From: Candidatus Zixiibacteriota bacterium
GTDB lineage: Bacteria; Zixibacteria; MSB-5A5; WJJR01; JAJRUJ01
Assembly: GCA_020051695.1 (NCBI GenBank)
Contig: JAGVQM010000019.1
Location: 15,221 to 79,220, forward strand
Direction of reading: 5' to 3'
DNA length: 64,000 bases
Shown: positions 3,388 through 46,138 of the stretch, one piece after another
How the letters are laid out: each line of letters opens with the position of its first letter
How positions within the stretch are numbered: position 1 is the stretch's first letter
Notes under the pieces: generated by a model
The model's input: only the letters and a program-made list of their open reading frames with translations
Told to the model about the DNA's origin: nothing
Database searches by the model: none
Position numbers and translations under genes: made by a program

Positions 3388-4029
3388 TCAGCTGAACAAT
3401 TTGAGCAGCCAATCGTCGATGAGGAACTGCACGCGCTCGATCAGCAGCGAAATACGCGCCATCACGGTATAGCCGAACGACGCGCCGAAGCCGATCATCA
3501 ATGTCCAGATGCCGACTTTGGCGATGCCGCCGGTGGCGCCTTTGTGTTCCTTGGAGAAAAAGAAATAGACCAACGACGTGATGATGCCGATCACCACCAC
3601 GACCGTGTTGATACCCGCCCAAAAGTCGGTTTGCGAATTATGGAGAGCGACAAACGACTGCACGGTGCCGAAGATTTGTTCGAGGACTTTGGTCTGCATC
3701 TCCAGCGGGATCGCGACGCCGGTAGCGATGCCCAGATAGAACGCCAGCGGGTACCGGGAAATCCAGGCCCAGCGTTTGACGATCCGGGTCCACATCAGGA
3801 CCCCGAGGAACGCCGGGATAAGATACCACCATTTCCCGGCCAGCAGTTTCTGCCAGATGTTGGGGATAGCCACGTTGACGTACAGGATAGAAACCCAGTA
3901 CCCTGCCGAAACGCCGACGACCAGATGTTCGGTAAATTTATAGAACGGATTGTCCTTGTACAAAAACGAAAAAATGCACAGGGTCAGCACCGCGGCGACG
4001 GTTGTGGCTATGGCAGTGGCGAAATCCAT
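3388..4029 (-). CDS. cassette protein D (copy 1): polytopic membrane protein of unknown function
   Basis: Paralogue of 34920-35684 and 38640-39383. Shared motifs FLYKDNPFYKF and FFSKEHKGAxGGxAKxGIWTLMxxFGASFGYTVMARISLLI. Several hydrophobic helices. Confidence 0.7.
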   Translation of the reverse strand: MDFATAIATTVAAVLTLCIFSFLYKDNPFYKFTEHLVVGVSAGYWVSILYVNVAIPNIWQKLLAGKWWYLIPAFLGVLMWTRIVKRWAWISRYPLAFYLGIATGVAIPLEMQTKVLEQIFGTVQSFVALHNSQTDFWAGINTVVVVIGIITSLVYFFFSKEHKGATGGIAKVGIWTLMIGFGASFGYTVMARISLLIERVQFLIDDWLLKLFS

Positions 4030-4032
4030 CGT

Positions 4033-4902
4033 TTATAACCCAACCCTGTTCTTTTTGCGGGTGGCAAAATACCCGATGTTACCGACGATAATAAAAATAA
4101 TAATAATTGAGTGCGCGACCACCTGCACGCTCATGCCTTCCACGGCCTTCCCCGGCGTGCCGACCAGCGTTTCATATTCTGCGGCGCCCTGTAATCCACC
4201 GAGGATTCCGAAAATCTGACCGGTCTGCAGATAGGGGTAATAGTCGGTGGCCATGACCCCGGTGACCCCGATGGCCAGCGGAACCTGATACCGGCCGTTG
4301 CCGTATGTAATCCACCAGTCGGTCGCGGAGGTCCCCGAAATGTTGATCACGGCTTTGATATTCTGGTAATTGCGGATACCCTTCATCATCGGCAGCGAAT
4401 CCAGCGGCACATTGTAATAATCGTTGGGGAAGGGGATCCGGTAGTTTTGTCCCATGCCCAGGATAATCAATATCGGGTATGGCTTGTAGCCCAGGAACAC
4501 CCAGTCTTTACCGCTTTCGGGGCGGTAGCCGGTCAGTTCAAAATGCCGCTGGCAGGCCGTGTCGATGGCTTCAGCAGCCATCCCCGGCCCGTTTTGATGC
4601 AAGGCGGTGATAATGACTTTGATCTTCTTTTCAAAACATTGTTTCAGGACGGCCCGCGTCATCGGGTGCAGCTCCGCAAGCGTGGAGGGATCGTAATCCA
4701 TCGCCAGATGGATATAATCGCCGTCACTGAGACTGTTCATATAATCGTAAATGCTGCGCGCTTCCTTGGAAATCGGGATCGGAATCACCGGCTTGGCAAT
4801 GACCGAGAGGACCACTGCCAGCATCAAAAATCCATAGACCCACCGCCGGTCGATGGCGAACATGCGTTCGAAAATGTTTTTTCGCGAATTCTGCTCAGTC
4901 AT
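4033..4902 (-). CDS. cassette protein C (copy 1): bitopic membrane protein with large periplasmic domain
   Basis: N-terminal TM (WVYGFLMLAVVLSVIA) and C-terminal TM (VVAHSIIIIFIIVGNIGYF). Paralogue of 35688-36548 and 39380-40237 (DYDPSTLAELxPM, GxxGAAEYE motifs). 3-nt gap to D. Confidence 0.7.
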   Translation of the reverse strand: MTEQNSRKNIFERMFAIDRRWVYGFLMLAVVLSVIAKPVIPIPISKEARSIYDYMNSLSDGDYIHLAMDYDPSTLAELHPMTRAVLKQCFEKKIKVIITALHQNGPGMAAEAIDTACQRHFELTGYRPESGKDWVFLGYKPYPILIILGMGQNYRIPFPNDYYNVPLDSLPMMKGIRNYQNIKAVINISGTSATDWWITYGNGRYQVPLAIGVTGVMATDYYPYLQTGQIFGILGGLQGAAEYETLVGTPGKAVEGMSVQVVAHSIIIIFIIVGNIGYFATRKKNRVGL

Positions 4903-4920
4903 GTTCCACCCGAGTTCAGA

Positions 4921-5547
4921 TCAATCCTTGCCCAGATATGATCGTTCAATACCCAGGACCACTTTCATCGCCGTCGAGACGATCCCCAGCCCGACCCCGA
5001 TCAAAATCGCCCGTTTGGCCGCCAGGTTGGGGACATTCAAAATCCAGTCCGAGGTTTTGCCGACCACCGAGGTCAGCGGCCCCAGCGGGAAAAACCGCAT
5101 CATGACGATGATGGCGGCGACCAGCAAAATACTGGCTAAAACCGAGCGGGCACGAAATGCCCGATAAGCGGCCGAGGCAATGAAAAAGGCCAGCAACGAA
5201 AACATCGTCGCCGAGATCGGGATCATGATGTTGTTGAAACTCCAGTCGAACGCCGTCGATAGCGGGGGATAATGATGGCCGATAACGCCGAACGCACTCA
5301 TGACAAACAAGCCGATGAGGGTGACGATGGAGTAACGCCAGGCCTCCGTTTTCCGCCTGATTCTGGTGATGCTCACGCGGGTCAGCGAAATGACGCCGAG
5401 CATCAGCGCAAACACGCCGATAATCGGCGGCCAGTCCAGGGCAATGAATTCGTAGAAAAACTCAGACTTTTCGTGGGGTACGAAATACTGCACGACCATA
5501 AACAGCCCGCAGGAAAAGATAATGATCAGTGGAAACTGCCGTTTCAT
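4921..5547 (-). CDS. cassette protein B (copy 1): polytopic membrane protein
   Basis: Paralogue of 36553-37341 and 40255-40917. Shared motifs ATMFSLLAFFIASAAYRAFRAR and NVPNLAAKRAILIGVGLGIVSTAMKVVLGIERSYLG. Confidence 0.7.
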   Translation of the reverse strand: MKRQFPLIIIFSCGLFMVVQYFVPHEKSEFFYEFIALDWPPIIGVFALMLGVISLTRVSITRIRRKTEAWRYSIVTLIGLFVMSAFGVIGHHYPPLSTAFDWSFNNIMIPISATMFSLLAFFIASAAYRAFRARSVLASILLVAAIIVMMRFFPLGPLTSVVGKTSDWILNVPNLAAKRAILIGVGLGIVSTAMKVVLGIERSYLGKD

Positions 5548-5556
5548 ATCCGTACC

Positions 5557-6906
5557 CTAAATATTCAATGCAAAATAATCCGTGAGCCAGCCCAGATTTA
5601 AAATCCCGGCAATCACTCCGATGACCATGGCCACCAACAGGAGCGCCTTGGCATAATCCTGGGCCTTTAACGTCCCCAACAGAATCGGTTCCCGTCCCAG
5701 GTAGGCCGATGCCGCGTATAATTCCTCACCGATGAGCGTATAGTCGCACGCCACAACGAAAAACGGAAGTTGGGTCACCCGGTCGGTCCCGGAAATCTGG
5801 ATCGACCCGGCCAGCGAACCGGTTTCCGCCAGGATCAGCGATTCGGCGTAGAACACACCCAGGTAGAAATTCGTCGCTGTCTGCCGCCGCAACATGACAC
5901 CGTTGACTGCGGCGACATAGGCAAACTGGTTTTGGGTGACAAAATAGACCATATCTTCGTTATAATCATCCACGCGGCCGGCGTCGATGTAGGCCTGTTT
6001 GACCGTTTCCTGCGCAATGGTCATCACAATCGAATCATAACAGGGGACGATAAGTTCGGTCTGGTACTCGGCGACTTTTTTGGCGACGCGGGAAAGAATG
6101 GTAAACGAGGCAATGGTGGCGATTTCATCGGGCGCCCCCAAACCGAGCACATACAAGATCGGCCGCCCCATTTCGGTCGCGCGGCCGATGGCCTCATCGA
6201 CGGCGTTGATCCCCGCCAACGGCCGGATATACAGTTCCCTGCCGCCCCTGGCCAGTCTGACCATGGTCAGCATCAAGCCCCCGAAGATCAGCACGGCCAG
6301 GACGACCCATGTTTTCCCCGTATGATACCACTGCCCGGATGATTCGACCGGGCCGAAGATTGCGGATTCAGAGACGGCGCCGCCGGTACCGACAGACAGT
6401 ATTTTAAACGAGAATCCGACATCGTCGGGAGAATAATCGTTGCCTTCGCGGGCCTTGCCGCCGCGATTAAAATATTCTGCAGTACCCGCGGGGATACTCG
6501 CAATTGTATCCCATACGCCCTCAACGAGATGCCACCAGGTGCCCTGTTCGTTACGCCATTGGGGCCCGTCGCCCTGTGGTTCGGTCAACGGACCCGCCCA
6601 GCCCGGCGTACGCAGGATCCTATATTGCAGGACATTGTTCCGGCCGCCCAGATCATCGGCGGAGATGTTCCAGGTCAGATGGAAGGCATGGCCATGGTCG
6701 TTGGGGAGGTCCACCACTTGAAGATTGCTGATCGGCGCGGGGGGAGGTTCGACAATAATGGTCGTGGAATCGACAATCAGCGTATCAGAATGGGGTTCGT
6801 CAACTTGCGCTGCTGCTGAAAGGGATAAAACACAACAAATAAAAACGGTTGCGGCTATGCAAATCCAACAATGGGTTGTCCTCACCCCAGCGGCCTCACC
6901 AATCAT
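5557..6906 (-). CDS. cassette protein A (copy 1): signal peptide - Fn3-like ectodomain - TM - conserved cytoplasmic domain
   Basis: Paralogue of 37350-38615 and 40951-42225. Invariant block GRATEMGRPILY...AESLILAETG...QLPFFVVACDYTLIGEELYAASAYL. Ectodomain has the Fn3-like pattern LTWxxxADD...YRILR. Confidence 0.7.
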   Translation of the reverse strand: MIGEAAGVRTTHCWICIAATVFICCVLSLSAAAQVDEPHSDTLIVDSTTIIVEPPPAPISNLQVVDLPNDHGHAFHLTWNISADDLGGRNNVLQYRILRTPGWAGPLTEPQGDGPQWRNEQGTWWHLVEGVWDTIASIPAGTAEYFNRGGKAREGNDYSPDDVGFSFKILSVGTGGAVSESAIFGPVESSGQWYHTGKTWVVLAVLIFGGLMLTMVRLARGGRELYIRPLAGINAVDEAIGRATEMGRPILYVLGLGAPDEIATIASFTILSRVAKKVAEYQTELIVPCYDSIVMTIAQETVKQAYIDAGRVDDYNEDMVYFVTQNQFAYVAAVNGVMLRRQTATNFYLGVFYAESLILAETGSLAGSIQISGTDRVTQLPFFVVACDYTLIGEELYAASAYLGREPILLGTLKAQDYAKALLLVAMVIGVIAGILNLGWLTDYFALNI

Positions 6907-34741: not shown

Positions 34742-34815
34742 TACCCCCGGCTGGATTCGAACCAGCTACCCTCGGCTTAGAAGGCCGATGCTCTATCCAT
34801 ATGAGCTACGGGGGC
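34742..34815 (-). tRNA. tRNA-Arg (anticodon TCT)
   Basis: Reverse complement folds as a cloverleaf: GCCCCCG/TA/GCTC...GAGC/A/TCGGC-CTTCTAA-GCCGA/GGGTA/GCTGG-TTCGAAT-CCAGC/CGGGGGT/A. CCA not encoded. Confidence 0.85.
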
Positions 34816-34919: not shown

Positions 34920-35684
34920 CTAGTTAATAAAGCCCAGCCAGTCGCCGAACAGGAAGCGCATGCGGCCGACCAACAGGGAAATACGCGCCATCACCGTGTA
35001 GCCGAAACCCGCGCCGAAAGTGACCATCAGCAGGTAAATGCCCACGCGCGAGGCGGCGCCGAATGCGCCCTTGTGTTCTTTGGAGAAAAAGAAATACACG
35101 ATCCCGCAAAAGACGCCAAGGAACACCACGACTGCTGACAGCGAATCCGTCGTCAGGAAACCGCCGTCCGGCCCGAACACGGCCAGCGGGTTGATCGTGT
35201 TATAAATCTGCCCGATAAAATCCGAACGCAGGTAGCGGACAAAATTCAATCCGGCAGTGGTCCCGACAATAAACGCCAGCGACCAGCGGGAAATCCAACC
35301 AAGCTTCGAAGACAACCGCAGCAATAAAATAATGCCCAAAATCAGCGGCAGGAGATACCAGTAATTCGGTTCGGCATCGGCCACCGAGGGTAAAAATGGC
35401 CGTACCGCCGGCGGATGCAGCCGCCCGATCAGGTTGGGGACCAGTGTCGTCCAAAACCCCATCGACATCCAGTACGCCGCCGAGACCCCAACAAACAAAT
35501 GCTCGGCAAATTTATAGAACGGGTTGTCTTTATACAAAAAGCTCAGGATACATAAAGTCAGGAACGCGCCGAACGTGATATAAAACCCTTCAAACGCCCG
35601 GGCATCGCGCGCCATGATCGAGATGACGAACGCAATGATCAGCACGATAAATCCGATCAGATAGATGATAGCCCTGCGTTGCAT
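34920..35684 (-). CDS. cassette protein D (copy 2)
   Basis: FLYKDNPFYKF and FFFSKEHKGAFGAASRVGIYLLMVTFGAGFGYTVMARISLLVGR motifs. Paralogue of 3388-4029. Confidence 0.7.
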   Translation of the reverse strand: MQRRAIIYLIGFIVLIIAFVISIMARDARAFEGFYITFGAFLTLCILSFLYKDNPFYKFAEHLFVGVSAAYWMSMGFWTTLVPNLIGRLHPPAVRPFLPSVADAEPNYWYLLPLILGIILLLRLSSKLGWISRWSLAFIVGTTAGLNFVRYLRSDFIGQIYNTINPLAVFGPDGGFLTTDSLSAVVVFLGVFCGIVYFFFSKEHKGAFGAASRVGIYLLMVTFGAGFGYTVMARISLLVGRMRFLFGDWLGFIN

Positions 35685-35687
35685 CGC

Positions 35688-36548
35688 CTATTTCGCCCGC
35701 GCTTTCCGTTTCCGGTCGATGAAAAAGGTCGCGTTGCCGATAATGATGAACAGCATGATCACGATATGCGCCACCGCCTGCGGCCCCATCATCTCCAGCC
35801 CGCCGTGCGGCATTTGCTCAAAATCGGGATATTTCCGGATCATTTCCGATTCGTATTCGGCTGCGCCCTTGATCCCCCCCATCATGCCCAGCATCTGGTT
35901 GGGATAATACGGATACAACTGCGGCGCCGAGACCGCGGTCACCCCGCCGGCCACCGGTATGTTGCCGGGGTCGCCGGCAAAAAGGATCCACTCTTTCAAA
36001 CCGGGAAAGCCGCCGCCGAAGGCCGCGATTAAGTCCATGTTTTTCAAACTGCGGACATCCCGCATCATCGGAATGCTGTCAATCTGCGTGCCGTTGACAT
36101 CGGTAGTATACATCTTCTTCATGTCGGTAATGATCACGTTGATCAGGCCCTGATTACCCGCCTTGTATCCCAGATGGACATAATCCACACCGCAAACCTT
36201 ATCCGGGAAATGTGTCGTGACGATACGGTCGATCGTCTCATCGGCCAGATTTTGCCCCGTGCCCCACAACGCCATGACATACAATTTCAGATTTCGCCGG
36301 CAACAGTGATACATCACGGCATCAACCATCGGTTGCTGTTCGGGAACAGTGGAGGGATCGAAATCCAGCGAAATCAACACCCGCGAACCCTCAGGCAGGG
36401 TCTCGATTTTATCGAAGATCTTCTGCACAATCGGCGTAATCCGCTCGGGAAAGATGACATTGAACAACAGGGGAATAATTACGGACAAGGCAATAAACAA
36501 AAAGATTATCCGCCGGTCGATGTTCTTGATGGTATCGAAAAAGGCCAT
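35688..36548 (-). CDS. cassette protein C (copy 2)
   Basis: 'IDRRIIFLFIALSVII' N-TM, 'SLDFDPSTVPEQQPM', 'GGIKGAAEYE', C-TM 'AVAHIVIMLFIIIGNATFF'. 3-nt gap to D2. Confidence 0.7.
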   Translation of the reverse strand: MAFFDTIKNIDRRIIFLFIALSVIIPLLFNVIFPERITPIVQKIFDKIETLPEGSRVLISLDFDPSTVPEQQPMVDAVMYHCCRRNLKLYVMALWGTGQNLADETIDRIVTTHFPDKVCGVDYVHLGYKAGNQGLINVIITDMKKMYTTDVNGTQIDSIPMMRDVRSLKNMDLIAAFGGGFPGLKEWILFAGDPGNIPVAGGVTAVSAPQLYPYYPNQMLGMMGGIKGAAEYESEMIRKYPDFEQMPHGGLEMMGPQAVAHIVIMLFIIIGNATFFIDRKRKARAK

Positions 36549-36552
36549 GGCG

Positions 36553-37341
36553 TTAATCCTTGTCCCGTCCGAGATATGTCCGTTCGATGCCCAGGATCAC
36601 CCGCAGCGACATCGAAATTACTCCCAGCGAAATGCCGATAATAATTGCCCGCTGGCCCGCCAGGTTGGGGACCCCCATAATCCAGTTGGTCAGGTTAGGC
36701 ACTTCGAAAAACGACAGCGCATCAGGCAGCCAGAACGTGGCATAGTACCCGGCGGGCGTCCGCCCCAGCAGAATGACAAAGGCAGTGACCAGCAGGACGG
36801 TGGCTTCCTTGTTTTTAGCCCGGAATGCGCGATACGACGCCGAGGCCACAAAAAAGGCCAGCAGCGCGTACATCGTCGCTTTCAGCGGAGTAAAGACATA
36901 CGTGAAAAAGTCCTGAAACACCGAGCCGGTGGCGGTGAGATTCCCCACCCAGCCGCCGGGGTTGCCGATTTTGAACAACCCGGCCCAGAGCATGACGAAA
37001 AATCCGATGAGTGTGACCATCGAGAAAAACCAGTCTTTGCCGCGCCGGTCCTCGATCCCGCCCATCGCATGGAAGGGAAACGCAATGAGCATCTTCAACG
37101 GCCAGAAGCCCCCCTGTTTCCTGCTTTCCGTGAAATAGAACTTCAACCCGCGGAAGAACCGCCCACTGTGGATCCGCACCAGGTTGCCGCCGCCGAGGAA
37201 GAAGGCAAACACGGCGATGATATCAAAATACAGGCTGAAATTTTCACCCAGCCGGCCGAACGGGTCATGCGGAATAAACGCCGCGATGATCAGCACCGCG
37301 CCGACGGTGAACGTGATTAATAATGGTACCTGCCGTTTCAT
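36553..37341 (-). CDS. cassette protein B (copy 2)
   Basis: Start reassigned to MKRQVPLL (ATG 37341) by alignment with B1 and B3. 'ATMYALLAFFVASASYRAFRAK' and 'VPNLAGQRAIIIGISLGVISMSLRVILGIERTYLG'. Confidence 0.7.
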   Translation of the reverse strand: MKRQVPLLITFTVGAVLIIAAFIPHDPFGRLGENFSLYFDIIAVFAFFLGGGNLVRIHSGRFFRGLKFYFTESRKQGGFWPLKMLIAFPFHAMGGIEDRRGKDWFFSMVTLIGFFVMLWAGLFKIGNPGGWVGNLTATGSVFQDFFTYVFTPLKATMYALLAFFVASASYRAFRAKNKEATVLLVTAFVILLGRTPAGYYATFWLPDALSFFEVPNLTNWIMGVPNLAGQRAIIIGISLGVISMSLRVILGIERTYLGRDKD

Positions 37342-37349
37342 GGTTTTGC

Positions 37350-38615
37350 CTATTGATTCAGCCGGAACAGATCGCGCACCCATTCGCCGGCGGTGGTGGC
37401 AATCCCGACATTAAACAATGACCCGATAGTCAGCAGTGTCACGCCGGCCAGGATCGCCAGCATCGCGATCATCTTGCCGACATCCTGCCCCTTCAACGAC
37501 CCCAGCTGGCGCGGTTCGTGCGACAGATAAGCCGAGGCGGCGAACAACTCCTCACCGATCAGCGTATAATCGCAGGCCGCGACAAAAAACGGCAGCTGTG
37601 CGGGCATCGCCGTGCCGGCGATCTGGATCGCCTCGATGGAATGGCCGGTCTCGGCCATAATCAGCGATTCGGCGAAAAACGCGCCGAGATAGAAACAGGT
37701 CGCCGGCCTTTCGCGCACCATGATCCCGTCCACCGCCGCGACATACCCGAACTGTTCGTCGGTGACATACTGCACATAATCATCCGAGTATGCATCGGGG
37801 CGCCCGGCGGCCAGATAGGCCTCTTTAATCGACTCGCGCGCGGTGGTCATCACAATCGAGCGTGAAGTCGGGACAAACAACTTGGAATCATATTCGGCGA
37901 TGGTCTTGGCGATCCGCCCCAAGATCGTAATCCCGGCCACGGTCTGCACGTCGTCCATGTCCTGGATGCCGGGGATAAACAAAATCGGCCGCCCCATTTC
38001 GGTGGCGCGTCCGATCGCCTCGTCGACCGCTTCGAGTCCGGCGATTTTGCGGATAAAGAGTATTTTGCCCCTTTTGGCCGAGGCGATGAAATACCCGATA
38101 AACAACGAGATGATTCCACCGACGACAAACAAATTCAGGATATTGAAATTAAACCACTGCGCGGACGATCGGACCGGACCGATCACCGGCGAAGACGACG
38201 AGCCCCCGGCTGTCTGGGTCTCGATTCTGTAATAGAAATCCGTCCCCGGCACGGTCGAGGCATCAGTGTATCTTTTTTCTCCGGCCGAGGAAAACCCGGT
38301 CTCGCGAAACGGCCCTTCCGGCGATTCGGCGCGCAAAATGCGGTAGCCCGTGACCAGGTTTTCGCCGGGACGGTCATCGGCCGACAGCTCCCAAAAGACA
38401 TTGATCGAATGCCCTTCATCGGAAGGCGTGTCTTCCGCCCCCGCATTGACCGGCGGCGCAGGCCGGCGGACCGCGGCCATCATCCCCGCAACGCCCGTAG
38501 CGGCGGAATCGGCCGGCGCCGAATCGACAACCTGGGCGACCATGCCGGAAGCCGGCAGCAGCATCCCTGCCAGAAGACAGCAAAAAAGAATTTTGTGCAG
38601 CACCTTCATGGTCAC
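37350..38615 (-). CDS. cassette protein A (copy 2)
   Basis: Signal peptide, Fn3-like 'NVFWELSADDRPGENLVTGYRILRA', TM, 'GRATEMGRPILFIPG...AESLIMAETG...QLPFFVAACDYTLIGEELFAASAYL'. Confidence 0.7.
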   Translation of the reverse strand: MTMKVLHKILFCCLLAGMLLPASGMVAQVVDSAPADSAATGVAGMMAAVRRPAPPVNAGAEDTPSDEGHSINVFWELSADDRPGENLVTGYRILRAESPEGPFRETGFSSAGEKRYTDASTVPGTDFYYRIETQTAGGSSSSPVIGPVRSSAQWFNFNILNLFVVGGIISLFIGYFIASAKRGKILFIRKIAGLEAVDEAIGRATEMGRPILFIPGIQDMDDVQTVAGITILGRIAKTIAEYDSKLFVPTSRSIVMTTARESIKEAYLAAGRPDAYSDDYVQYVTDEQFGYVAAVDGIMVRERPATCFYLGAFFAESLIMAETGHSIEAIQIAGTAMPAQLPFFVAACDYTLIGEELFAASAYLSHEPRQLGSLKGQDVGKMIAMLAILAGVTLLTIGSLFNVGIATTAGEWVRDLFRLNQ

Positions 38616-38639: not shown

Positions 38640-39383
38640 CTAGTTAATCAATTGCAACCAATCACTCATGAGATAATCCATGCGGCCGATCAACAGCGAT
38701 AACCGGCTCATGACCGTATACCCGAATGATGCGCCGAACGTGAGCATCAGTGTCCAGATCCCGATTTTGGCCACCCCGCCGAATGCGCCTTTATGTTCCT
38801 TGGAAAAATAAAAATAGATCAGTCCGGAGAGCGTCCCGATGACCAATATTGCCTGAGAAATGGTCGCCCACAAGTCGAGATTCCCGGCGGCATCGTAACG
38901 CTGCAGCGGGCCAGCAGAGGCCCCCAGCTGGAGGATGCCGTTGGAAACAAAGTAATTGATAAAATACAACCCCGCCGTCGCGCCGACCACCACCGCCAGC
39001 GGCCAGCGGGAGATCCACCCCGCTTTGGGAAACAACCGCATCAGCATCAGGACGCCCAGAAGCCCGCCGATCAGCATCATCCACCGGTCATCCCATCCGC
39101 CGCCCTGCACGAACGTCGTGTGATAGGCCGCGCCGACCCCGACGAAGAGCTTGGAATACATATTCTGCCAGAATAATGAGACAAACCAATAGCCGGCGGA
39201 AATTCCCACAAATGCGGCTTCGGAAAACTTGTAATACGGGTTGTCTTTATACAAGAAGGAAAAGATACCGATGGTAAAAAACGCACCCAGGGTCACCGCA
39301 AGGCCCTGGGATGCGGCCAGGATCGCAAAAACGGCGATTCCGACGGCGATAACGATATAGCCGACTACTTTGGTGTTCATCAT
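38640..39383 (-). CDS. cassette protein D (copy 3)
   Basis: FLYKDNPYYKF and YFSKEHKGAFGGVAKIGIWTLMLTFGASFGYTVMSRLSLLIGR. Start ATG overlaps the C3 stop (ATGA). Only 25 nt before the A2 start. Confidence 0.7.
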   Translation of the reverse strand: MMNTKVVGYIVIAVGIAVFAILAASQGLAVTLGAFFTIGIFSFLYKDNPYYKFSEAAFVGISAGYWFVSLFWQNMYSKLFVGVGAAYHTTFVQGGGWDDRWMMLIGGLLGVLMLMRLFPKAGWISRWPLAVVVGATAGLYFINYFVSNGILQLGASAGPLQRYDAAGNLDLWATISQAILVIGTLSGLIYFYFSKEHKGAFGGVAKIGIWTLMLTFGASFGYTVMSRLSLLIGRMDYLMSDWLQLIN

Positions 39384-40237
39384 GTTTGCTTCCGCCGGCC
39401 ACCGGCAAAGTAGGCCACATTACCCACGATGATGAAGAGGATCACGATGATGTGGGCAAATGACTGGGATAACATGAATTTCGTGGCCTTGCCCAGGGTA
39501 CCGGCCAACTCTTCAAATTCCGAAGCGCCCTTGAGGCCGCCCAGAATCCCCCGGAGCTGCCCGCTTTCAAAATAGGGATACGCCAGCGGGGCCTGTACTG
39601 CTGTCGTCCCCCCCAATAATTGTACCCCGAAACGATCAACGCCGAATTGCACCCACTCCACAATACCCGGATATCCGGCGGAGACATTGATCACAAAGTC
39701 GATATTGTTAAAATTCTGCATTCCCTGCATCAGCGGTAACTCGGCGATTGGCGTGCCCCGGAAATCGCGCGGGAATGCCGCGGGAATCGACGAACCCATC
39801 CGCTGGATCACCAATTCATTGCCGGCCTGGAAACCGAGGTTGACCCAGTCGCGGCCATAGGTCAGCGTCTTGCCCTTCCAGATAATCGTTTCTCCGGGCA
39901 CCTCGCCCAGTACGGACTCCAAGGCGGCATTGGCCTGCTGCGGTCCCTGCGGCCACAGTCCCATGATGATCATCTTCAAGTCATGATCGAGGCAATACCG
40001 GATCGCCGTTATCGCCATCGGCTGCAATTCCGGCGCCGAGGGAGGGTCATAATCACAGGGAATGAGCACGCGGGCGCCCGGCTGCAGTCGCGCCAGTTCG
40101 TCAAAACCACGACGCACTTCGTAAGAAATCGTGGTCTTTTGGGAGATATTCAAAAATAACGGCAGGGTGACCGCAACGATGACGAACAGGAAAATAATCC
40201 GCCGGTCGATCTTCATCAATTTGTCCCAAAAACCCAT
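39380..40237 (-). CDS. cassette protein C (copy 3)
   Basis: Start reassigned to MGFWDKLMKIDRRIIFLF (ATG 40237, AGGAA RBS) by alignment with C1 and C2. The ORF-track start at 40426 would overlap B3. Confidence 0.65.
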   Translation of the reverse strand: MGFWDKLMKIDRRIIFLFVIVAVTLPLFLNISQKTTISYEVRRGFDELARLQPGARVLIPCDYDPPSAPELQPMAITAIRYCLDHDLKMIIMGLWPQGPQQANAALESVLGEVPGETIIWKGKTLTYGRDWVNLGFQAGNELVIQRMGSSIPAAFPRDFRGTPIAELPLMQGMQNFNNIDFVINVSAGYPGIVEWVQFGVDRFGVQLLGGTTAVQAPLAYPYFESGQLRGILGGLKGASEFEELAGTLGKATKFMLSQSFAHIIVILFIIVGNVAYFAGGRRKQT

Positions 40238-40254
40238 GCCGTTCCTGCCTGTCA

Positions 40255-40917
40255 TCAATCGCCGCTGACAAATGTCCGTTCGATCCCCAGAATAATCCGC
40301 AATGATGTCGACATGATCCCCAGCGCGATGCCGATCATGATCGCCCGCTGCCCGGCGGTGTTGGGGATGTTCATCACCCAATCGGCCCAGTTGGACAACC
40401 ACAGCCAGTGGGGCAACTGCAACCATTCTTTGGTGATCATATCACCGACCGGCACCCGCCCCAGCATCACAAAAAATGCAGCCAACAGCAGCATCGTCGC
40501 TTCCTTGTTGCGGGCGCGGAAGGCCCGATAGGAAGCCGAGGCCACGAAAAAACCGAGAAGGGCAAACATCGTGGAGGACAGCGGATCATAGACATTATCA
40601 TAAATGAACATGAACCGCGTACCGGGCTCCTGAAAATTCGCTCCTCTGGAGAAAAAGATGCCGACGATAAATATTGCGGCAAAACCGATAATCGTCACCA
40701 GTGAATACATCCAGTCTTTCTTGCGCCGGGCAACCTTGAGCAACGACAATTTCATCAAGTTCAGCGCACCCAGCCAGATGGCAAAGGCCTGAATGATCCC
40801 AAACCAGTCGGAAAACCAGTCGGAAAACCGGGAAACCGGTTCGTGCGGCACGAAATATTGGAAGATGTACATGATCCCCACCACCGCAGTGATGATCAAT
40901 GGAACTTCACGCTTCAT
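40255..40917 (-). CDS. cassette protein B (copy 3)
   Basis: 'STMFALLGFFVASASYRAFRARNKEAT' and 'IPNTAGQRAIMIGIALGIMSTSLRIILGIERTFV'. Confidence 0.7.
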   Translation of the reverse strand: MKREVPLIITAVVGIMYIFQYFVPHEPVSRFSDWFSDWFGIIQAFAIWLGALNLMKLSLLKVARRKKDWMYSLVTIIGFAAIFIVGIFFSRGANFQEPGTRFMFIYDNVYDPLSSTMFALLGFFVASASYRAFRARNKEATMLLLAAFFVMLGRVPVGDMITKEWLQLPHWLWLSNWADWVMNIPNTAGQRAIMIGIALGIMSTSLRIILGIERTFVSGD

Positions 40918-40950
40918 CTTCGCTCAAACCCTTCCCGTCTCCCCACGACG

Positions 40951-42225
40951 CTACACCTGGAACCACCCGGAAATATCCGCAATCTTAAATGTTCCCAGGA
41001 GCAAACCTGCGACAGCCGCGATCAAGATCAGTACTTTGGCCACGTCCTGACCCTTGACGCTGCCCAGTAATTTCGGTTCTTTCGACAGATAGGCCGAGGC
41101 GGCAAAAAGCTCTTCGCCAATTAATGTATAGTCGCAGGCCGCCACAAAAAACGGCAATTGAGAGGCATTCGCGGTGCCCGCGATCTGAATCGCACCGATC
41201 GCATTGCCGGTTTCGGCCATAATTAACGACTCGGCGTAAAACGCGCCCATATAGAAAATCGTCGCCGGTTTCTCGCGGACAAACAAGCCGTCCAGCGCAG
41301 CGGCATAACCGAACTGGTCATCGGTAAGATAACGCACGATGTCTTCGTTGAACGCATCCGGCCGGCCGACGTTCAAATAGGCCTCCTTCACCACCTCGCG
41401 GGAGGTGATCATCACCAGTGAACGCGAAACCGGAACATCCAATTGCGCATCGTACTCCGCGGCCAGTTTGGCGATCCGCCCCAGGATGGTCACCCCAGCC
41501 AGGGTCTGGACATTATCCATATCCTGTGTCCCGGGGATATACACCAGCTTGCGGCCCATTTCGGTGGCGCGCCCGACCGCCTGTTCGACTTCCGCCAGAC
41601 CGGCGATAGGCCGGACGTACAAATCCTTGCCCTTCTTGGCCACATTGATAAACCACAAAATCGAAATTCCGATTACCAGCACCCAGGGCAAAATCCGTGC
41701 GGTGCGAATGATATGAAACCACTGGCCGGAGGCTTTCGCGGCCCCGGAGAGCGGCGAAGCCACGCCGGCAAACAGTTTTTCCCCGGCCGGAGTGAACTTG
41801 CCGGCCAGGGCGGCCACCTTATAGTAATAATTTACCCCGTTGTCGACCTGGCCGTCGGTGAGCGTGGTCATTCCGGCGGTCGCGGAACCAACGGTATCAA
41901 ACGGCCCGTCGGGCGAAGTCGAACGCAAGATAATATACTTGGTGACATTTCTGCGGCCGGCAACATCATCGGCGGACAGTTCCCAACTGATAGTAATCGA
42001 TTTCCCGGCGTCATCAGGGGTATCCTGGGCTTCGACCGAGACAACCGGCGCCGGGGCTTCGAGTTGGGGCGGAGTTTCAGCCACAACGACCGTGGTCGAG
42101 TCGACGGGAGCATCCTGTGCCCAGGCAGGCGATGCCGCGCCACATACAGGAAAGACCAGCAGGAACAGGGAGATGGACAACGCTTTTTTCATCATCAGCA
42201 GTTCCTGCACAAAAAAAATCCCCAC
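40951..42225 (-). CDS. cassette protein A (copy 3)
   Basis: Signal peptide (MMKKALSISLFLLVFPVCGAASPAWA; true start may be M11 or M12), Fn3-like 'ITISWELSADDVAGRRNVTKYIILRS', TM, 'GRATEMGRKLVYIPG...AESLIMAETG...QLPFFVAACDYTLIGEELFAASAYL'. Confidence 0.7.
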   Translation of the reverse strand: MGIFFVQELLMMKKALSISLFLLVFPVCGAASPAWAQDAPVDSTTVVVAETPPQLEAPAPVVSVEAQDTPDDAGKSITISWELSADDVAGRRNVTKYIILRSTSPDGPFDTVGSATAGMTTLTDGQVDNGVNYYYKVAALAGKFTPAGEKLFAGVASPLSGAAKASGQWFHIIRTARILPWVLVIGISILWFINVAKKGKDLYVRPIAGLAEVEQAVGRATEMGRKLVYIPGTQDMDNVQTLAGVTILGRIAKLAAEYDAQLDVPVSRSLVMITSREVVKEAYLNVGRPDAFNEDIVRYLTDDQFGYAAALDGLFVREKPATIFYMGAFYAESLIMAETGNAIGAIQIAGTANASQLPFFVAACDYTLIGEELFAASAYLSKEPKLLGSVKGQDVAKVLILIAAVAGLLLGTFKIADISGWFQV

Positions 42226-42353
42226 CTGCTTTGAGGTGAGGTCCTATTCATCGACGAGACTGGGTTCCCGGACAATGACTTGTTCTGCGTTTCCCGTCTC
42301 TCATAACCGTCACTATTATCCCATCCCCATCCCGCACACTCACAAGTGATAGA

Positions 42354-42382
42354 ATATACCCCCCGCATATACCGCCTGTCAA
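42354..42382 (-). promoter_or_regulatory. putative sigma70 promoter for the 8-gene cassette array (TTGACA-17-GTATAT/TATATT)
   Basis: On the minus strand, cTTGACAggcggtatatgcgggggGTATATTct, ~120 nt upstream of the A3 start, in the divergent intergenic region. Confidence 0.4.
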
Positions 42383-42515
42383 GGCAATTATTCCCCGGAG
42401 AACCAATCAACGGCGGCTCTGCTGGCCGCTGATCAGTGCGGTGCATTTATCGAAAAACCTGTTGACATCCGGCCCCGTGCCCGCTTGCTCTAGGGGAAAG
42501 GATAGAGCGCAACTG

Positions 42516-43184
42516 ATGGCCGCGACACAAAAAATCGACGTCTACGAACAAGCCCTGGAGCTGGTCCGGCAACTTCATGCGGTGAACAAATATGAGGTGG
42601 ATGAGGAGGTGGCCGAGTGGCTGGCCAGCGAATCGGAAATCAACGCTGATTCCCCCAGCGGGCAATTCAACAGGATCATCGGCAGAATTTACGAGGGCAT
42701 GTTCAACGGCATTCAATCCATGCGGGAAATCGGGCCGGAATTGCTGTGGGGCCGCGCGCAGGACAAAGTCCGGGGCGAATCATATCATGCGCCGGACACT
42801 GCACAAAAGGAAAAAATACCGATCATCCACTGGCGGCTGCTGCGATTGTACTGGATGGTCCGGCTGGCCGCCGAGGAGTTGATCGAGCAAAAACCCCGCA
42901 CCCGGCTGGGCAAAGTCTTAATCGAAGTCGAGCACGACCTGCGCGAGGCGTTTGTCGAAACAAAAGAAGGCGTCAAGCTCCCGCTGGCCATGCGCCGCAA
43001 GAAACAGTGGGACCTGCTGGCCGATTTCGGCATGGGGCTGACGGTCGACCAGATTTACGATCTGCGCCCGCCGCGCTATGTCATCCACTGGAACACCGGC
43101 GAAAAGTTGTGGCTGGGAATAATCGTCGGAATCGTGATCGGTTTCGTGCTGGGGGTAATGCTGCTGTGGCCGTCGGGGCAGTAG
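42516..43184 (+). CDS. hypothetical tail-anchored protein, divergently transcribed from the cassette array
   Basis: Start at ATG 42516 (MAATQKID). Soluble helical ~190-aa domain followed by a single C-terminal TM (LWLGIIVGIVIGFVLGVMLLW). Confidence 0.45.
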   Translation: MAATQKIDVYEQALELVRQLHAVNKYEVDEEVAEWLASESEINADSPSGQFNRIIGRIYEGMFNGIQSMREIGPELLWGRAQDKVRGESYHAPDTAQKEKIPIIHWRLLRLYWMVRLAAEELIEQKPRTRLGKVLIEVEHDLREAFVETKEGVKLPLAMRRKKQWDLLADFGMGLTVDQIYDLRPPRYVIHWNTGEKLWLGIIVGIVIGFVLGVMLLWPSGQ

Positions 43185-43198
43185 CGCTTGCGCTGCTC

Positions 43199-46138
43199 CT
43201 ATAATTCTCCGTTGGCGTCGGTTTTAATGATGCTGAAATCAGCAGATGTGGCACCATGAGCGGTCATCCACCCGCTGATGATCAGACCACCATCGGGAGC
43301 TTCAATGACACCGGTGGCCCCATCACTTTCGGAATCACCGATGGTCCGTTCCCACAGGATCGTCGCAGTCGGACTTATTTTTGCCACGTACATATCGCTT
43401 TTGCCTGCGCCAAACGATTTAGTAGAACCAACAACAACAAAATTGCCATCCGAAACCGCAATGATCTTTGAAATCGCATCATCATTGCCGCCACCCAGAT
43501 AGAGTTCGTTGCGTTTATTGCCCAACGAATCAATCCATATTACATAACCATCTTTCATTCCGAAATACGATGCCTGGGTCCATCCGGCAATTACGTAATC
43601 ATCGATTCCATATTGAATCAGCGATTCGCCACTGTCATTGTAATAGTAGGCCCCCTGACCGTAATCTCTGCCCCACAAGTTTTTACCCTGCGCATCAGTC
43701 TTGGTAACAAACAAACCGACGCCAGCTATCATCAACCCGGTATCATGACACTGAATCACCGCATTGCCGCCATAGCCCGAATATTGCCTTTTCCAGGTTT
43801 CCTGTCCGATGGCATCAGTTTTGAACAAGAATGCTGCGGGGTTGCCTCCGACGGAGCCAGACAGAACATACCCACCGTCTGATGTTGCTGCGACAGATCG
43901 GCTGCCAGCCACCACCGTGGCACCGTCAACATAATGAAGGCGTTCCCAACCAATTGAACCGAAATCATCGATTCTGGCGATTACAACTCTGGTATCCCAT
44001 ACTAATCCCCCGCGTTCCCCCGATTCTCCGGCCGCGATATATCCACCATCCCATGCCGGGATTATTGAAAAGAGGTAATCGTCATAATCCGGTCCATGGC
44101 CAAAAACCCGTTCCCATGCCACTGTACCATCGGCGTTGACTTTAGTCGCGTAAAAATCAGAAGTCGACTGCGGTGAATAACTTGGACTCCAATAGGCAAC
44201 GCCATTTGGAATTGTGCCGACCGCCACCGCGCCACCCTCAGGGGTTAAAGTAATTGAGCGTGCTGCTTTCCTGCCAGTGCCTCCGATAATAGTATACCAA
44301 GTATTGGATAACGTTGTTGTTTTCGCCTCTGCCACATTGGAAAGTCCAGACCAATTTCCCGAAGTATCCGCCGTCTTCAGCGCTAAAAAATAATTCAATC
44401 CTGGAGTTAATCCGATTATCTCAAATGATTCCGCTTCGTGTACAGGTTTCGCAGGCCGTAATCCTTCTGCCGGAATCCCCTCACTCCATGTATCATCTGT
44501 AATCGGTGACGTTGCATAGCGCATGTCGTATTGAGCTGCCTGCCCCAAAAGACTATCGTCACCCGACGCGTTCCAAATCAAGGTCACCGAATTATGGCTG
44601 ACGGTTTGCGGGTACAGGTTCGTTATTGCTGCCGGAGGGATTGTGTCTGTTCCAGGTCGGGCGATTCCCAGCACATCATTCGAGAGAGGGGACCAATTCT
44701 GGACCTCATCCGCAGTTTTTATGGCAAAATGATAGGCGGTGTTTTTCGTCAAACCCGTTACCATGAGTGTTTCCGGGGAACCACTTGATAGAGGCAACGT
44801 AACACCGGGATAGGAATATAGTGCTCTGAAATTAGTTTCATTAATTACTGAAGTCGAGTATCGAAGATCGTATAAACTAGCCGTTCCCACATCGCCATCA
44901 TCTCCCGGCGCCGTCCAACTCAAGGTCAGCGATGTCAATGATGAATCGATAATCCGCAAATCAATGATTGCCCCCGGCGGCGTCCGGTCGATGCTCGCTG
45001 TCCGCGCCGCCAGTACGTTGGACATCGTCGACCAGTTCAGCATTTCGTCGCCGGTTTTCAGGGCAATATAATATTCAGTTTCACTCTGCAAACCGGAAAT
45101 CCTGATTGTGTCACCAGTTCCGGCGAACGATGGTTTCGGCAGATTTGGCGCGATTTGTGCATCGGGAAAATTCACTTCGTTCATCAGCCGGGGAGAATAA
45201 CGAATATCATAAAACGACGCTCGTCCCAGCGTGTCGTCATCACCCGGCGCCGTCCAGATCAACAAAAGAGAAGTGCTCGTCGTATCCAGAACTCTCAGAT
45301 CAGCAATCGGTCCCGGAGGCGTGGTATCGGCCGCCGTGGCGCCGATGATGACATTAGACATTGCCGACCAGTTCGGGACTTCATCGGCGGTTTTAATTGC
45401 AAAACAATAATTTTCGTTCGTGTCCAGGTCATAGAAAGTATACTGCTGCGTGCTGTCCGCCAGCCAGGGTGTCGGTGGATCGGCAACCTGTTTCGCATGA
45501 ATAAAATATTCGTCGGTAATCAGCGTGGTCGGTGAATAACGGATATCATATGCTGCGGCAGTCCCCGCCGAGCCGTCATCGCCGGGCACGGTCCAGCTTA
45601 ATTCAATGAAGGTATATCCGGCGTCAGTCACCCGCAAATCGGCAATTGCTGCCGGGGGGACAGTATCCAGGACAGCTTCTGTCGTGCCGGTGGCGATATT
45701 GGAGATCGCCGACCAGTTGGGCACTTCATCAGCCGCCTTGATCCCAAAATAATATGTTGTGTCCGGCAACAGCCCGAGGACCAGCATCGTCTCCGGCGTC
45801 CCCGCTTCCTGCGGGATCGGCAGACTGAACGGCTGCAGCGCCGAATCCCAGGTGGAATCGGTCAGGACGATGGAATGAAATCGGATATCATATTGGGCCG
45901 CCGTGCCGTTGGCGTCATCATCCCCGGGCGCGGTCCAGGTCAGCACCAGCGAACTGTCAGTGGGATTGATCGCCGCAAGATCGGTAATTTGTGCCGGGGG
46001 TGTGCTGTCGGGAATACCGGTGCCCTTGTCGGTTTTTTCCACGCCGCAGGACAAGACAAGCACGACGATCAAACCGGCGCCAATCAACGACTTTCGCAGT
46101 CGCATCCCCACCTCCCGCCGAGCGCAAGTGTCCGGCAT
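43199..46138 (-). CDS. large cell-surface lipoprotein: five tandem Fn3-like repeats + C-terminal β-propeller-like repeat domain
   Basis: Signal peptide with lipobox-like 'LVLSCG' (alternative start MRLRKSL at 46105). Five ~100-aa repeats each containing 'PPxxIxDL...LxWTAPGDDxxxGxAxxYDIRYS...YYFAIKTADEVxNWS'. C-terminal ~350 aa of ~45-aa repeats (DGGYIAAG / DGGYVLSG / DGNFVVVGS...W.R). Confidence 0.65.
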   Translation of the reverse strand: MPDTCARREVGMRLRKSLIGAGLIVVLVLSCGVEKTDKGTGIPDSTPPAQITDLAAINPTDSSLVLTWTAPGDDDANGTAAQYDIRFHSIVLTDSTWDSALQPFSLPIPQEAGTPETMLVLGLLPDTTYYFGIKAADEVPNWSAISNIATGTTEAVLDTVPPAAIADLRVTDAGYTFIELSWTVPGDDGSAGTAAAYDIRYSPTTLITDEYFIHAKQVADPPTPWLADSTQQYTFYDLDTNENYCFAIKTADEVPNWSAMSNVIIGATAADTTPPGPIADLRVLDTTSTSLLLIWTAPGDDDTLGRASFYDIRYSPRLMNEVNFPDAQIAPNLPKPSFAGTGDTIRISGLQSETEYYIALKTGDEMLNWSTMSNVLAARTASIDRTPPGAIIDLRIIDSSLTSLTLSWTAPGDDGDVGTASLYDLRYSTSVINETNFRALYSYPGVTLPLSSGSPETLMVTGLTKNTAYHFAIKTADEVQNWSPLSNDVLGIARPGTDTIPPAAITNLYPQTVSHNSVTLIWNASGDDSLLGQAAQYDMRYATSPITDDTWSEGIPAEGLRPAKPVHEAESFEIIGLTPGLNYFLALKTADTSGNWSGLSNVAEAKTTTLSNTWYTIIGGTGRKAARSITLTPEGGAVAVGTIPNGVAYWSPSYSPQSTSDFYATKVNADGTVAWERVFGHGPDYDDYLFSIIPAWDGGYIAAGESGERGGLVWDTRVVIARIDDFGSIGWERLHYVDGATVVAGSRSVAATSDGGYVLSGSVGGNPAAFLFKTDAIGQETWKRQYSGYGGNAVIQCHDTGLMIAGVGLFVTKTDAQGKNLWGRDYGQGAYYYNDSGESLIQYGIDDYVIAGWTQASYFGMKDGYVIWIDSLGNKRNELYLGGGNDDAISKIIAVSDGNFVVVGSTKSFGAGKSDMYVAKISPTATILWERTIGDSESDGATGVIEAPDGGLIISGWMTAHGATSADFSIIKTDANGEL

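Follow-up and report, generated by a model that had tools for sequence, protein, structure and literature searches.

The conserved A-B-C-D gene cassette of Zixibacteria and other phyla and the inner-membrane complex it probably encodes

The described inner-membrane systems that come closest to the locus reported here are the ion-translocating redox complexes Na+-NQR and Rnf, and the GldAFG system, in which GldG consists of a transmembrane (TM) helix, a large periplasmic α/β domain and a second TM helix and is encoded beside a six-helix permease. A further point of reference is the Pfam family DUF6754 (PF20539), a name to which no function, partner or structure is attached; no paper mentioning it was found in the literature, and searches for PF13941 and for GlmL together with Planctomycetes returned nothing relevant. 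We analyzed a stretch of 64,000 nucleotides (nt), hereafter the window, from Candidatus Zixiibacteriota bacterium (assembly GCA_020051695.1, contig JAGVQM010000019.1, positions 15,221 to 79,220 of the forward strand). Three copies of a four-gene cassette, A-B-C-D, occur in the window, all on the minus strand, and A is a member of DUF6754. On balance, we regard it as rather probable from the comparative sequence evidence that A, B, C and D are four subunits of one conserved, uncharacterized inner-membrane complex produced from a single transcript. This reading draws on the fixed gene order, very short or overlapping junctions, duplication of the genes as a block, and the natural occurrence of C and D as a single polypeptide. 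The system is real and non-artefactual, and it appears to be undescribed.

Gene order was studied by scanning a D profile against one genome per species, which gave more than 587 hits, and by checking the best 80 genome loci. The order and strand of A-B-C-D were invariant in 80 of these 80 loci, and A was present in every complete cassette among them. The sole exception seen was a metagenome-assembled genome of Planctomycetota (L082), where no A was called beside B and a C-D fusion. Cassettes were found in Zixibacteria, Planctomycetota, Eisenbacteria, Lernaellota and many uncultured lineages, and the protein families are large: more than 6,357 clusters for D and more than 8,000 for A at 90% identity, and 4778 clusters for C at 50% identity (E<=1e-3). 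The A proteins of Planctomycetota and of this Zixibacteria genome share 60% identity, and the D and A alignments contain 46-65 invariant columns. In the source databases these proteins are annotated as 'hypothetical', 'DUF6754' or 'fibronectin type III domain-containing'.

Cassette 1 extends from A1 to D1 (38640-42195; minus strand, as for all cassette coordinates below). A1 (40951..42195) comprises a signal peptide, a fibronectin type III (Fn3) ectodomain, a TM helix, a cytoplasmic α/β domain of ~200 amino acids (aa) and a second TM helix. It is followed by B1 (40255..40917, 220 aa), a six-TM subunit assigned from its open reading frame (ORF), alignment and hydropathy, with ASASYRAFRA at the cytoplasmic end of TM4. 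C1 (39380..40237, 285 aa) consists of a TM helix, a periplasmic α/β domain of ~225 aa and another TM helix; its start codon, ATG at 40237, agrees with NCBI product P0241 (100% identical, 285 aa). A longer C1 ORF reaching 40426 was rejected, as it would read through the conserved 3' end of B1 in a different frame. D1 (38640..39383, 247 aa) is predicted from its ORF, hydropathy and an AlphaFold2 (AF2) model to be a seven-helix membrane subunit. Cassette 2 (A2 to D2, 34920-38609) lies directly downstream. It includes A2 (37350..38609; Pfam DUF6754, E 3e-120; start ATG 38609 or GTG 38615), B2 (36553..37341, 262 aa), whose ORF carries in the alignment an insertion between TM2 and TM3, C2 (35688..36548; ORF and alignment), which begins 4 nt past the B2 stop, and D2 (34920..35684), which is read from the sequence in the frame of C2. 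Cassette 3 (A3 to D3, 3388-6906) is located ~28 kb from the other two and keeps one reading frame throughout A3 (5557..6906), B3 (4921..5547), C3 (4033..4902) and D3 (3388..4029), the last being a short form of 213 aa that lacks the extra N-terminal helix. Identities among the three window copies equal 47-57% for A, 44-51% for B, 34-38% for C and 45-52% for D, values that mark these paralogues, as judged from sequence, as anciently diverged.

The junctions within the cassettes are short. For cassettes 1, 2 and 3, respectively, the A-B gaps measure 33, 8 and 9 nt, the B-C gaps 17, 4 and 18 nt, and the C-D gaps -4 (an overlap), 3 and 3 nt. The overlap is the tetranucleotide ATGA at 39380..39383, where the sequence directly shows the C1 stop (TGA, 39382-39380) and the D1 start (ATG, 39383-39381). 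The original prediction for this region, that B1, C1 and D1 are tightly packed head to tail on the minus strand, agrees with these data, as do its A-B gaps of 8-33 nt and its C-D spacing of 3 nt or a 4-nt ATGA overlap. Its B-C gap of 17-19 nt holds for cassettes 1 and 3 and fails for cassette 2, where only CGCC separates the TAA of B2 from the ATG of C2. The cassette copies that it mentioned exist; it did not state that there are three of them, and it missed an ATPase-containing system, described below, that lies outside the window. Its central proposal, a multi-subunit membrane assembly, is upheld by the invariant order, the cassette-specific divergence and the C-D fusions, and has to be amended in that A was left out. 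A separate B-C-D sub-complex is contradicted by the gap statistics (160 or more junctions per type across related loci), with a median over 163 junctions of 12 nt for A-B, tighter than the 43 nt for B-C, by the presence of A in all complete cassettes of the 80 genome loci, and by an equally strong co-divergence of A. The predicted unit is thus A-B-C-D rather than B-C-D.

The median C-D gap across these loci equals 2 nt, with overlaps in 64 of 167 pairs; together with the C-D fusions, the overlap makes stoichiometric co-production of C and D plausible. Short gaps are ordinary in the window, where many unrelated same-strand pairs are 3-60 nt apart or overlapping, and it is the conservation of the cassette, rather than tight spacing alone, that exceeds chance. 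Between cassettes, the D1 stop and the A2 start are separated by 24-30 nt with no convincing terminator, and the median D-to-next-A gap in related loci is 26 nt. Given this short junction, it is probable that cassettes 1 and 2 constitute a single operon of eight genes, whose putative extent is from a promoter-like site at 42382-42353 to a tRNA gene at 34815-34742.

Distances among cassettes were analyzed for 148 complete examples. Clustering resolved four cassette clades, and cassettes 1, 2 and 3 of the window fall into three different ones. Three cassettes in tandem are the rule in most Zixibacteria. In the commonest array, seen at 21 loci, members of those three clades follow one another as cassettes 1, 2 and 3, and the third cassette is relocated ~28 kb away in this genome; some lineages, including Eisenbacteria, have a single cassette. 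For the four families, the matrices of pairwise distances correlate with r of 0.85-0.91, A as strongly as B, C and D, and the correlation falls to about 0.05 once cassettes are shuffled within genomes. Cassettes have therefore been duplicated as blocks and have never swapped members, a pattern that fits cognate subunits. As a separate observation, the B-C gap reaches ~190 nt in many cassette-1-type cassettes (L006, L019, L021 and similar; proteins P0276-P0360). There, gene callers add a non-conserved N-terminal extension of ~50 aa to C; another C start or a small unannotated element are candidates for explaining the gap.

Natural fusions of C and D were found in three of the top 150 C representatives (P0400, P0433 and P0509), all from Planctomycetota; among their sources is the complete genome of Calycomorphotria hydatis, which is in culture. 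These proteins match both families (E 1e-48 to 1e-82), with the C part at residues 2-279, the D part at about 352-597, and one extra TM helix and an acidic loop of ~60 aa between the two. An extra TM helix is exactly what is required to join the cytoplasmic C-terminus of C to the periplasmic N-terminus of D, which supports the predicted topology. When the fusion was compared with the window, a single tblastn high-scoring segment pair (36527..34926, 40.5% identity over 597 aa) ran through C2-TAG-GCG-D2. C2 and D2 are thus colinear and in the same frame as the planctomycete fusion, separated by TAG and one codon, and from the sequence one base change would fuse them.

Among the four subunits, A is the only one with a named family. 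A1 and A2 match DUF6754 at 391-401 bits against a gathering cut-off of 27, the whole model is covered in A1, A2 and A3 (E 1e-117 to 1e-120) across the first TM helix, the cytoplasmic domain and the second TM helix, and A3 and the homologues align throughout. The AF2 model of A (mean predicted local distance difference test, pLDDT, of 78.8) shows a signal peptide, the Fn3 ectodomain, a TM helix, a four-stranded α/β cytoplasmic domain (pLDDT 72-96) and a C-terminal TM helix. Residues 320-358 (AESLIxAETG...IQIAGT...QLPFFVAACDYTLIGEE; in A1 at window positions ~41122-41238, minus strand) are the most conserved stretch of the whole system, yet AF2 places all of the cytoplasmic domain except this segment, which suggests that it folds only against partners or a ligand. 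The Fn3 ectodomain is optional, since it is absent from the 298-aa A of C. hydatis. One lineage (L084 and a contig of JGI 3300072015) has an A with a much larger ectodomain (573-581 aa).

B is predicted from hydropathy to have six TM helices with both termini inside, and most of its invariant Arg and Glu residues are found where TM4 and TM6 end on the cytoplasmic side. C begins with a TM helix whose N-terminus is inside, followed by the periplasmic domain, a C-terminal TM helix that bears invariant His and Asn residues, and an Arg/Lys tail inside (hydropathy and positive-inside rule). In some C variants one loop of the periplasmic domain holds large insertions, namely Ig/CARDB-like repeats (CARDB/Ig-like in P0406), HEAT repeats or a tandem C-C duplication, and the loop that tolerates them must be surface-exposed. 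D has six or seven helices, with invariant residues clustered in three cytoplasmic loops and the last helix. Several features singled out in the original prediction recur across the families: the two D motifs (FSFLYKDNPxYK and YFxFSKEHKG...FGAxFGYTVMxRxSLL) and the B block (ASA(S/A)YRAFRA) are invariant, and the 225-aa soluble domain of C is placed outside the cytoplasm. Its failure to recognize the subunits was also repeated here: B, C and D gave no accepted match in Pfam, NCBIfam, PADLOC or PDB sequences, including profiles and relaxed scans of 29-50 family members. A fused B+C query recovered C homologues alone, profile-profile tests of A against C and of B against D showed no relationship, and the two structure models (A and D) gave no fold lead beyond the Fn3 ectodomain of A.

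In other genomes the cassette usually lies directly downstream of a second module. In C. hydatis a compact operon of about 6.8 kb encodes, in order, a small 123-aa protein, a MutL-like ATPase, a 375-aa protein (P375), an A without Fn3, B, and the C-D fusion; the same order is repeated on two unrelated metagenome contigs. The ATPase (616 aa, GlmL/MutL-like, actin-fold) has intact DCGSTTTKA and DIGGATTD motifs and matches PF13941 from end to end (E 1.6e-127, 426 bits). Against NCBIfam it scores 228 bits for the GlmL equivalog (cut-off 475) and 158 for the glmL_fam subfamily (cut-off 204). P375 has an N-terminal barrel-sandwich hybrid of the RnfC/NqrA type, with hits to Biotin_lipoyl (15 of 20 members), RnfC_N (10 of 20) and NQRA_N. 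Among metagenome loci anchored on P375, the MutL-like gene is directly upstream in 45 of 48, and A-B-C-D is directly downstream in 30 of the 43 with enough sequence. The ATPase and P375 pair also adjoins the first cassette, co-directionally or divergently, in 21 of the 45 Zixibacteria loci with at least 4 kb of upstream sequence. Taken alone, the conserved neighbours in Zixibacteria flanks resembled plain synteny; they became meaningful once the planctomycete locus was known.

Further genes were observed around this module. A small conserved protein of ~100-140 aa usually precedes the GlmL-like ATPase (L081 2987-3358, L007 1013-1429 and most of L088-L165); it carries the motif PAI..LES.KPLN(Y/F)(I/V)G.Q.M.FF.P, is unmatched in Pfam and PADLOC, and might represent a seventh component. 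The lineage with the enlarged A ectodomain has an extra gene of 156-158 aa, without a family, between P375 and A (L084 5033-5509; JGI 3300072015 contig 6117-6587). Downstream of the C-D fusion in the Planctomycetota loci L081 and L082 there is a block of genes for a CsrA-like protein, uppS, cdsA, DUF309, a polyprenyl synthase and a squalene-hopene cyclase, which could reflect lineage synteny or a lipid link.

If the four proteins form one complex, it would contain about 16-17 TM helices, with a membrane core built from B (six) and D (six to seven) and two further helices contributed by each of A and C. A would cap the cytoplasmic face with its very conserved α/β domain, and C would cap the periplasmic face with its own. 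The invariant residues of B and D lie nearly all in cytoplasmic loops and A 320-358 is unfolded in isolation, which together point to a shared cytoplasmic interface or active site. This segment and the B and D loops would then present a conserved cytoplasmic face on which the ATPase module could dock. The ATPase pair might drive a conformational cycle that moves something across the cytoplasmic membrane, or reshapes something at it, and the periplasmic domain of C would handle the substrate outside. The three Zixibacteria cassettes could represent specialized isoforms or parts of a hetero-oligomer.

As a tentative extension, which we hold to be possible at best, the cassette together with the GlmL-like ATPase and P375 could constitute a new class of ATP-driven inner-membrane machine, either a transporter or an energy converter, unrelated to the ABC, P-type, F/V-type, Sec and Rnf/NQR systems. 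Its expansion in Zixibacteria into three or four paralogous complexes would belong to the same tentative picture. The families are large and conserved across phyla at about 60% identity, yet they have no annotation, literature or structural relative; their conservation and the dedicated ATPase suggest that they are central to the physiology of organisms that dominate sediments, groundwater and oceans. If an actin-fold ATPase indeed powers a membrane complex, energy would be coupled at the bacterial membrane by a new principle, and the presence of a compact operon in the cultured C. hydatis makes the function directly testable.

Several observations weigh against the proposed complex and its coupling to an ATPase. 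The ATPase and P375 genes are absent from the 64-kb window, and neither lies close to the cassette in Eisenbacteria, Candidatus Lernaella, L083 and L086; the module may therefore be an accessory, or have nothing to do with the core mechanism. The known GlmL acts as a chaperone that reactivates glutamate mutase and not as a transport ATPase (PMC4682846). Calling the process transport is a guess based solely on the architecture. Genes that are inherited together are expected to show strong co-divergence in any case, and it is no proof of contact. The key region of A, residues 320-358, has a pLDDT below 50, and the AF2 model of D is all-helical and poor (pLDDT 65.5). The same chaperone role of GlmL/MutL, combined with the enzyme-like conservation of A and P375, agrees with a membrane-anchored enzyme, in which the cytoplasmic domain of A and P375 would be the catalyst, the GlmL-like protein its ATP-dependent reactivase or chaperone, and B, C and D only anchors or channels for substrate or product. 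We find such an enzyme rather improbable: no known catalytic or cofactor motif was recognized in A or P375, D and B are conserved like A, beyond the need of passive anchors, and the linked loci examined contain no B12 or radical-enzyme genes and no mutase beside the ATPase. The barrel of P375 with its RnfC_N and NQRA_N hits, the reminiscent subunit sizes and topologies, and a very high cross-phylum conservation typical of bioenergetic machinery would instead recommend an ion-translocating redox complex of the Rnf/Na+-NQR kind, with P375 as the NqrA/RnfC-like peripheral subunit, B and D as the small six-helix subunits and C as the anchored periplasmic subunit. There is still less reason to expect this, given that 29-50 members per family gave no Rnf-Nqr, FMN_bind, Fer4 or flavin/NAD family hit (E<=1), that B and D are without conserved Cys clusters, and that the actin-fold ATPase partner is absent from Rnf and NQR.

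The outward-facing parts of the cassette raise the question of an envelope-biogenesis, secretion or surface machine (polysaccharide or lipid export, adhesion, gliding), in which C and Fn3 would act on envelope polymers and the core would be mainly a scaffold or an ion-driven motor. The Fn3 ectodomain of A, the large insertions accepted by C at one surface loop, including the CARDB/Ig-like repeats of P0406, and some envelope-gene neighbours (Wzi in L083; uppS, cdsA and hopanoid genes in Planctomycetota) accord with it, but the ectodomain is dispensable, as the 298-aa A of C. hydatis illustrates, conservation is strongest on the cytoplasmic side, the envelope neighbours differ between lineages, and no T9SS, Gld, Wzx or Wzy family was matched. 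On these grounds a surface machine is unlikely. By far the most improbable is that the proteins are merely co-located membrane proteins with separate jobs, their spacing a product of a compact genome. The commonness of short gaps between unrelated window genes and the uninformative promoter and terminator scans are compatible with simple co-location; an order invariant in 80 of 80 loci and across phyla, duplication of the cassettes as blocks without reshuffling, and the natural C-D fusions bring it close to refuted. None of these alternatives has positive support at the family level.

Signals and genes flanking cassettes 1 and 2 were annotated as well. The promoter-like site at 42353..42382 (minus strand; TTGACA-18-TATATT, 11 of 12 matches, ~160 nt upstream of A1) comes from a consensus scan only, in which the count of such sites in the region was near that of shuffled sequence, and is a candidate operon promoter. 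About 110 nt downstream of it, and ~15 nt upstream of the A1 start codon, a terminator-shaped hairpin (CCUCACCUC...GGUGGGG) followed by U8 is present at 42211-42241 (minus strand) and is a possible leader attenuator or the remnant of a terminator; for the 5' leader upstream of A1 as a whole, the predicted fold was not significant (z -1.34). The two-cassette array ends with a tRNA gene (34742-34815, minus strand; Rfam, 67.5 bits) ~100 nt downstream of D2, which was the sole match in the Rfam scan of the region. Just upstream of the cassettes, a 979-aa secreted protein (43199-46138, minus strand) combines roughly six Fn3 repeats (Pfam fn3, E 4e-35) with a C-terminal half rich in repeats, and no link between it and the cassette was seen at other loci. 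Transcribed divergently from the promoter region of the cassette is an ORF of 247 aa (42441-43184, plus strand), which ends in a TM helix and is unmatched in Pfam.

Among the known systems, anti-phage defence models in PADLOC gave no hit for A-D, the MutL-like protein, P375 or the small protein, and DUF6754 covers A over the whole model without contributing more than a name. C shares the layout of GldG. In contrast to GldAFG and other ABC-2 systems, the cassette is without an ABC ATPase or Walker motifs; ABC_tran, ABC2_membrane and ABC_transp_aux gave no hit, the sole match being a weak, sub-threshold TMD0_ABC in 9 of 29 B proteins. From Na+-NQR and Rnf, the cassette differs in that A-D have no sequence homology to any Rnf/Nqr subunit and no flavin or iron-sulfur motifs, in its actin-fold ATPase partner, and in the second, C-terminal TM helix of C. 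The Pfam models Rnf-Nqr and NQR2_RnfD_RnfE had no B, C or D hit (window proteins; 29 B and 41 C members, E<=1), PDB profile searches were empty, FMN_bind and Fer4 had no hit in C or A, and B and D have no conserved Cys pairs. The likeness to these redox complexes lies in the general plan, which is that of a multi-subunit inner-membrane complex with small six-helix subunits, a TM-anchored periplasmic subunit and, on the cytoplasmic side, a peripheral subunit that starts with a barrel-sandwich hybrid, to which the RnfC_N/NQRA_N-like part of P375 corresponds. Although the linked ATPase differs from GlmL (PF13941, TIGR01319) in its length (~615 aa versus ~460), its score below the equivalog cut-off, the lack of an adjacent mutase and the position of its gene outside the window, it is similar to GlmL along the entire PF13941 model and has kept the phosphate-binding motifs of the actin fold.

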